The translations under genes were made by a program, and so were the position numbers. Positions 2,747 to 3,596 of a DNA stretch of 64,000 nucleotides are shown here, in pieces (within the stretch, counting starts at the first letter, position 1; each line of letters opens with the position of its first letter). The stretch comes from Escherichia coli (GTDB lineage Bacteria > Pseudomonadota > Gammaproteobacteria > Enterobacterales > Enterobacteriaceae): assembly GCF_050920415.1 (NCBI RefSeq), contig NZ_CP169309.1. One strand, written 5' to 3'. The notes beneath the pieces were generated by a model. It was not told the DNA's origin. It searched no databases and worked only from the letters and a program-made list of their open reading frames with translations.

Positions 2747-3596
2747 ACCATAGCTCGCTACGACCTCCCCGATGAAGCATGGACCATCATCAAGCCCTTG
2801 TTGCCCCCTGAACCTGCCACACGACGGGCCGGGCGCCCATGTGCAGAGCATCGTAAAATCATCAACGGCATGTTCTGGGTATTGTGTTCCGGCGCACCAT
2901 GGCGCGATTTACCCGAACGATTTGGGCCATGGAAAACCGTTTATAACCGCTTTAACAGGTAGTCAAAGTCAGGCGTGATTAACATCATTTTCAACAGATT
3001 GCTTTCACTACTTGATGCGAACGGCTTTGTTGACTGGTCTGCCACAGCGCTGGATGGCAGTAATATCCGGGCACTAAAATGCGCCGCCGGAGCTCAAAAA
3101 AAATTCCGATATCGACGGAGATAATGGGCTGGGTCGCTCTCGAGGCGGTTTGGGCACCAAAATCCATCTGGCAACAGACGGAAGCGGCCTCCCGTTAAAT
3201 ATCGTGCTAAGCCCCGGGCAGTCTCATGAAAGCCAGTTCGCGCAACGACTTCTGGACGGCATTGGCGTTCATCGTCAGAACGGTTGCATGAAACGCCGTG
3301 GTCATGTTGTGCTGGCCGCCAAAGCGTACTCCGGACTCACATTGCGCAACGAGCTGAAAAATAAAGGCATAAAGGCAGTCATCCCCCGAAAATCAAATGA
3401 AAAAATGGCATCGGATGGACGAGCACGGCTTGATCGCGATGCATATCGCAATCGCAACGTCGTTGAACGGTGCTTTGGCCGCCTGAAAGAATACCGCCGC
3501 ATCGCTACGCGTTACGACAAAACGGCGAGAAATTATCTGGCGATGGTGAAACTGGGCTGCATCCGACTCTTTTATCAACGGTTGCGTAATTAAGGG
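2747..3596 (+). pseudogene. IS5-family transposase remnant: no start codon, in-frame TAG at 2960..2962, and a frame change in an A8 run
   Basis: Translation reads RYDLPDEAWTIIKPLLP...WKTVYNRFNR* then GTKIHLATDGSGLPLNIVLSPGQ...RCFGRLKEYRRIATRYDK in a different frame; A run at about 3096..3103. Confidence 0.6.

Follow-up and report, generated by a model that had tools for sequence, protein, structure and literature searches.

We found that the segment 2715..3604 of the analysed window, a stretch of 64,000 nucleotides from an Escherichia coli contig, is very probably a decayed copy of an insertion sequence (IS) of the IS5 family, IS427 group, and a close relative of ISSfl7 and ISEhe2. The copy is dead several times over: it can neither move by itself nor be mobilised, it can make no transposase any more, and it is without function. 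The change of reading frame within its transposase gene is best read as native, inherited design of the family and not as damage, since the two-frame layout with a -1 shift is kept in close and distant relatives alike. The features on which this account rests are collected in Table 1.

Table 1. Features of the IS copy and of neighbouring IS debris in the window
Feature	Positions	Strand	Basis or remark
IS3-family transposase stub	1..~187	+	ORF 49..240 against NF033516 positions 90-146
IS4-family/Tn5-like transposase, C-terminal ~80 residues	2414..2692	-	NF033590 positions 322-399 of 405, E=2e-15; Pfam Dimer_Tnp_Tn5
IS remnant, 890 of 915 bp	2715..3604	+	alignments with the O157:H7 copy, ISSfl7 and ISEhe2; repaired protein against NF033580
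Deletion scar, TATAG microhomology	2715..2719		alignment to L009
Former start codon, ATG to ATA	2750..2752	+	ATG in the O157-type variant, ISSfl7 and ISEhe2; ATA in all six locus copies
orfA: DUF4096 DNA-binding part and first catalytic Asp	2750..3124	+	zero frame; TAA at 3122-3124
Nonsense TAG for invariant Trp (TGG), codon 71	2960..2962	+	alignment of relatives
orfB frame: rest of the DDE catalytic domain	3078..3593	+	open from 3078 to TAA at 3591-3593; Pfam DDE_Tnp_1
Degenerate frameshift site, C-A8-TT against C-A7-C-AT (A_AAA_AAC, -1) in relatives	3095..3105	+	alignments
GCC (Ala) for GAC, second catalytic Asp of the DDE triad, motif ADKAY	3318..3320	+	alignment
Right inverted repeat ATTAAGGGACACAGCC, intact; transposase stop codon inside	3589..3604	+	15/16 against the reverse complement of the left repeat in complete copies
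Right copy of the 2-bp TA target-site duplication	3605..3606		TA at both ends of five independent insertion sites

The sequence-only reading had recognised a decayed IS5-family transposase gene, and the profile searches agree. The conceptually repaired protein matched the NCBIfam model NF033580 ('IS5 family transposase') with 296.7 bits (E=1.5e-88) against a cut-off of 110 bits, and Pfam found in it DUF4096 (97.3 bits, residues 6-80) and DDE_Tnp_1 (73 bits). The IS5-family assignment is secure, far beyond chance. By comparison across 5426 complete E. coli genomes the repeat unit extends over 2715..3606 and not over 2747..3596. At full length ISSfl7 has 916 bp; the variant found here has 915 bp, as in the complete copy at NZ_AP027764.1 2097817-2098731. 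Complete elements, aligned from copies at independent sites, start with GGCTGTGTCCC(G/T)TAAT... and finish with ...ATTAAGGGACACAGCC, and in the complete 915-bp copies at the locus the left and right terminal repeats agree at 15 of 16 positions. The uninterrupted yfaL gene has a single TA at the position occupied by ISSfl7 in FDAARGOS_943, and TA is therefore a 2-bp target duplication; the window copy retains only the right repeat and the right TA. Members of the IS427 group are small, at about 800-1000 bp, and have short terminal inverted repeats. The group is described as having two overlapping ORFs, a conserved frameshift motif and 2-bp duplications (PMC3281130), and the complete relatives agree with this description in size, repeats, 2-bp duplication and the two ORFs.

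Alignment to intact relatives, as proposed in the sequence-only reading, identified the parent as related to ISSfl7 and the right inverted repeat as surviving, with the left one deleted. The closest relative elsewhere is a 915-bp variant present as a single copy in O157:H7 (WP_087498070.1), which is 96.4% identical over 892 bp. This O157-type variant has the same length as the window copy, the same one-base-short slippery region and orfB at +1, but it reads A6C instead of A8TT and retains the ATG and the catalytic Asp. In O157:H7 and a few other strains it lies at another chromosomal locus, beside a gene for a TrlF-family ATPase; the left repeat of the O157:H7 copy is interrupted by a neighbouring IS3-family element, and some of the TrlF-adjacent orthologues also carry the TAG or an extra G. 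ISSfl7 has 91% DNA identity to the window copy (91.2% to ISSfl7 copies) and shares the ends GGCTGTGTCCC...GGGACACAGCC, the TA duplication and an orfA/orfB arrangement with the shift after ...AGAQK. It differs in its length of 916 bp, its A_AAA_AAC site, orfB at -1, and the intact start codon, Trp71 and DDE triad. About 95% nucleotide identity is usual for isoforms of one IS under the ISfinder convention, and the window copy falls below that level. ISSfl7 is a multi-copy element, found at 36 places in FDAARGOS_943 and in 3-5 copies on most Shigella virulence plasmids. Its copies are named 'IS5-like element ISSfl7' by PGAP and appear as ISSfl1 ORF1/ORF2 on pCP301 of Shigella flexneri (AF386526); a literature search on ISSfl7 returned incidental mentions only. 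ISEhe2, from the pPATH plasmids of Pantoea agglomerans, is 87% identical and has the same ends, the A7C site, the -1 layout and a CDS span of 845 nt; unlike the window copy it resides in a different genus and is apparently intact. A match in Serratia (L014) was a partial copy only and was left out of the comparison.

Regarding the left end, the damage could be traced to a single event. Window 2000-2719 corresponds in the alignment to 2401-3120 of L009, another carrier of the same locus, and the match resumes with window 2715-3968 at L009 4068-5329. Between two TATAG pentamers the window has therefore lost 952 bp. With this deletion went the left inverted repeat GGCTGTGTCCCGTAATAGTTTGAGC and the left TA, together with some 920 bp of DNA from the islet, and the element lacks its first 25 bp in the window. 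A search for inverted repeats inside the window accordingly found no terminal repeats, because the left one is deleted. The complete left end is present at the same locus in L009, L010 and L011, which are the three read out of twelve other carriers that matched in two pieces, over about 950 bp more than the window has. Strain N96 has the same 952-bp deletion, and the one-piece match of MFDS1022581 also fits it. The undeleted segment (L009 3116..4072) includes a minus-strand hypothetical ORF overlapping the left end of the IS. In strain 2017.17.01CC (L012) the left end was lost independently: an IS1A abuts the element at the window equivalent of about 2727, hchA is truncated, and the whole islet is gone through an independent IS1-associated deletion. 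As the left inverted repeat is lost, the transposase of a relative cannot move the window copy in trans.

Two earlier statements concern the 5′ side of the gene. A 5′ truncation had been proposed, and it holds for the element, but the ORF itself is not truncated, as codon 1 and the 35-bp leader (2715-2749) are still present in the window. Likewise, the frame does lack a start codon, but the cause is a point mutation of ATG to ATA at 2750-2752 and not a truncation of the ORF.

The earlier observation that the frame changes at the A8 run (3096-3103) was confirmed, with the upstream frame stopping at 3122-3124 and the downstream frame continuing to the TAA at 3591-3593. The window copy has orfB at +1 relative to the orfA frame and a CDS span of 844 nt (1 mod 3); ISSfl7 and ISEhe2 each have a span of 845 nt (2 mod 3). 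The slippery region is one base shorter than the A7C of the ISSfl7 type and carries substitutions in addition. The -1 frameshift motif of the IS427 group is thus absent from the window copy: the heptamer is destroyed and orfB is at +1. In ISSfl7 the orfA frame reads GCT CAA AAA AAC and orfB lies in the -1 frame, and PGAP marks the CDS as 'programmed frameshift'. The A7C site is retained in ISEhe2 and in the copy of E. coli strain 23AR1101, which is 93% identical to the window copy and so closer than ISSfl7. We also checked five distant relatives with 30-45% protein identity (a Streptomyces element, ISLpl3, ISBugl2, ISKpn12 and a Deinococcus element), and all five have a CDS span of 2 mod 3 and, at the homologous position, a zero-frame AAA-AAG, AAA-AAA or AAA-AAC.

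These comparisons bear directly on the claim that the frame change is an accidental homopolymer indel in a single-ORF gene, in which A7 became A8 by insertion of one base. It is true, as had been calculated, that removing one A fuses the frames into AQKNSDID..., and some members of the IS427 group, such as ISPha1, are natural single-ORF mutants (PMC3281130). However, ISSfl7 (36 copies in one genome), ISEhe2 and the 23AR1101 copy are all two-frame elements with A7C and orfB at -1, the five distant relatives have the -1 arrangement at the same position, and the window is one base shorter, not longer, than its relatives. The ancestral state is therefore A7C with orfB at -1 and not a single-frame A7. 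Intact relatives change frame at the same place, so the claim of an accidental indel did not stand, and we regard a single-ORF ancestor as highly improbable.

In working members, a programmed -1 ribosomal frameshift at A_AAA_AAC would make the transposase by joining orfA (DNA-binding, DUF4096) to orfB, which holds most of the DDE catalytic domain, and orfA alone would give a DNA-binding product. The conservation of motif and frame suggests that the -1 shift is in fact used in the IS427 group. A_AAA_AAC is the proven -1 motif of IS1 (PMC4066793); the insAB' genes of IS1 have the identical heptamer, and there too the shift joins a DNA-binding product with the catalytic domain (PMC3281130, PMC4066793). 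IS1 belongs to an unrelated transposase family and resembles the IS427-group element in mechanism only. Frameshifting is reported to be in use in the IS5 family (PMC5009743), and as of 2012 transframe products had been demonstrated only for IS1 and IS3 (PMC3281130). In the literature we found no direct demonstration of frameshifting in ISSfl7 or any IS427-group element. A hairpin predicted 3′ of the ISSfl7 slippery site only weakly beats shuffled sequence (z = -2.0), and folding downstream of the window site gave nothing convincing; the folding results are given no weight here.

Besides the slippery site, the coding sequence carries three lesions. The TAG at 2960..2962 had been read as replacing Trp, and rightly so: the codon is TGG in intact relatives, and Trp71 is kept without exception by 7 relatives, the most distant at about 30% identity. 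Asp190 is also invariant in 7 relatives, and its replacement by Ala at 3318-3320 is a lesion missing from the earlier note. Seen as a DDE transposase, the window copy thus has Ala for the second Asp, TAG at 2960-2962 and ATA in place of the start. We compared six copies at the hchA-porin locus: ATA, TAG and A8TT are common to all six, and the Asp to Ala change is found in five. The sixth, in strain 2013C-4282, keeps GAC, and the Asp to Ala change is therefore later than ATA, TAG and the slippery-site damage. The 952-bp deletion, which among the six is carried by the window and N96, is later than the Asp to Ala change.

Errors in homopolymer length are common in long-read assemblies, and it could be argued that the lesions are assembly or sequencing errors in an intact element. 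Against this, six assemblies made independently in different laboratories show the same ATA, TAG and A8TT, and the lesions are mostly substitutions and not indels. We consider the chance of an artefact practically negligible, and a homopolymer sequencing error in particular was rejected on the identity of A8TT in the six assemblies at the locus.

The nonsense codon is not confined to this locus. The same TGG to TAG change at codon 71 occurs in the TrlF-adjacent copies of VE-V10-F (L007) and 1070/13 (L008), and TGG is retained at that locus in the orthologues of O157:H7 and EC102. The presence of TAG at codon 71 at two loci points to recurrent G-to-A mutation, reversion or gene conversion.

To follow selection on the gene, we counted substitutions per branch with ISSfl7 as the outgroup. 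The deep branch to ISSfl7 has 52 synonymous and 11 non-synonymous changes (pN/pS 0.07). The window branch has 5 and 8 (pN/pS 0.51) and the O157-type branch 5 and 11 (pN/pS 0.70), the last two ratios resting on small counts of 13 and 16 substitutions. This pattern shows that the gene was long under purifying selection and that constraint then relaxed on both terminal branches. The downstream ORF 3150..3593, with a TTG start, was considered as a domesticated gene, a reading that found no support, given the relaxed constraint on the branch and the loss of the catalytic Asp.

The short slippery site can be reached by two routes. In the O157-type copy, which equals the window copy in length, the site reads A6C. 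Either one A was lost in a shared ancestor and two substitutions followed in the window lineage, or the two lineages lost a base independently, one an A and the other the C, with one substitution besides; each route takes three events, and both explain the site equally well. A scan of 100,044 species-representative genomes for the slippery region (GCTCAAAAAAN{1,2}ATYCCGATATCGA) gave no match, a result that is uninformative on the spread of A6C beyond E. coli and Shigella.

Another idea is that the 915-bp A6C/A8 variant had switched its recoding, using a +1 or -2 shift or RNA-polymerase slippage giving A7 transcripts, and was active until recently. If true, this would be a case of an IS changing its recoding mode by a single-base change and reaching two loci before dying. 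One-base-short copies do exist at two loci, each flanked by TA, and IS elements are known in which transcription slips on A runs (PMC5009743, PMC6211511). For the O157:H7 A6C copy PGAP moreover gives the label 'programmed frameshift' and a derived protein. This annotation (L001 1536..2379, strain 4276, WP_087498070.1) was made despite the 844-nt span; the orfB of the 4276 copy is at +1, so the -1 site of the family cannot yield the PGAP protein, which is probably the product of an over-generous annotation rule. Several results speak against the idea. No genome among the 5426 complete ones has more than a single copy of the variant, PLSDB plasmids lack it at 95% identity or above, constraint is relaxed in both lineages, and orthologues have independently acquired a nonsense codon or an extra frameshift. 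The two loci are explained equally well by independent one-base losses, and A6 is a short run for RNA-polymerase slippage. For the window copy the question is moot, given the ATA start, the TAG and the Asp to Ala change. We therefore attach very little credence to a switch of recoding and retain the reading of a decayed copy of an element with an inherited -1 layout.

The history of the locus is outlined as follows. The IS inserted at a TA located 42 bp downstream of the stop codon of an OmpC-family porin gene. After the insertion the copy lost its start codon, gained the nonsense codon and suffered the damage to the slippery site; next the catalytic Asp was replaced by Ala, and last the microhomology deletion of 952 bp removed the left end.

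The surroundings fit an accessory islet with IS debris, as had been suggested from an IS3 stub at the start of the window. Window 200-3750 is identical to NZ_CP169399.1; there the gene is a pseudogene in the PGAP annotation ('programmed frameshift; internal stop'), and the gene order is hchA, IS pseudogene, OmpC-family porin, drpB, yedJ and dcm. The islet with the IS is found in 14-15 of 5426 complete E. coli genomes. The porin gene (3648..4871, minus strand; OmpC family, NF007841, 537.7 bits), whose stop codon lies 42 bp from the right end of the IS, stands beside drpB, yedJ and dcm, and we take this position to be the yedS porin locus and not ompC proper. PGAP describes the IS3 stub as 'transposase; frameshifted; incomplete; missing C-terminus'. 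The IS4-family fragment is a third IS relic and directly abuts the IS5-family element; over it, PGAP places in the identical genome a plus-strand 'hypothetical protein' (2388..2714), which is probably spurious. The part of the islet at about 620..2406 of the window has a second copy, 84-89% identical, beside uhpA in some E. coli, and an ORF of 465 aa (832..2229) within the islet had no Pfam or NCBIfam match. A piece of about 80 bp (2328-2406) matches the end of uhpA at 86-90% in 5205 of the 5426 genomes; the islet thus seems to include a fragment from around uhpA. This is a rare accessory islet assembled from IS debris, and the earlier term 'eroding accessory islet' is a fair description.

Taken by itself, the window copy is an ordinary IS pseudogene, already annotated as such in RefSeq, and it has little biological weight. 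The locus yields a tidy, ordered history of lesions. The case carries a caution for reading such genes: a change of frame at an A run in transposase genes of IS1, IS3, IS630 and IS5/IS427 is usually a programmed site and not decay. Decay in these elements is to be judged against the programmed-frameshift architecture.
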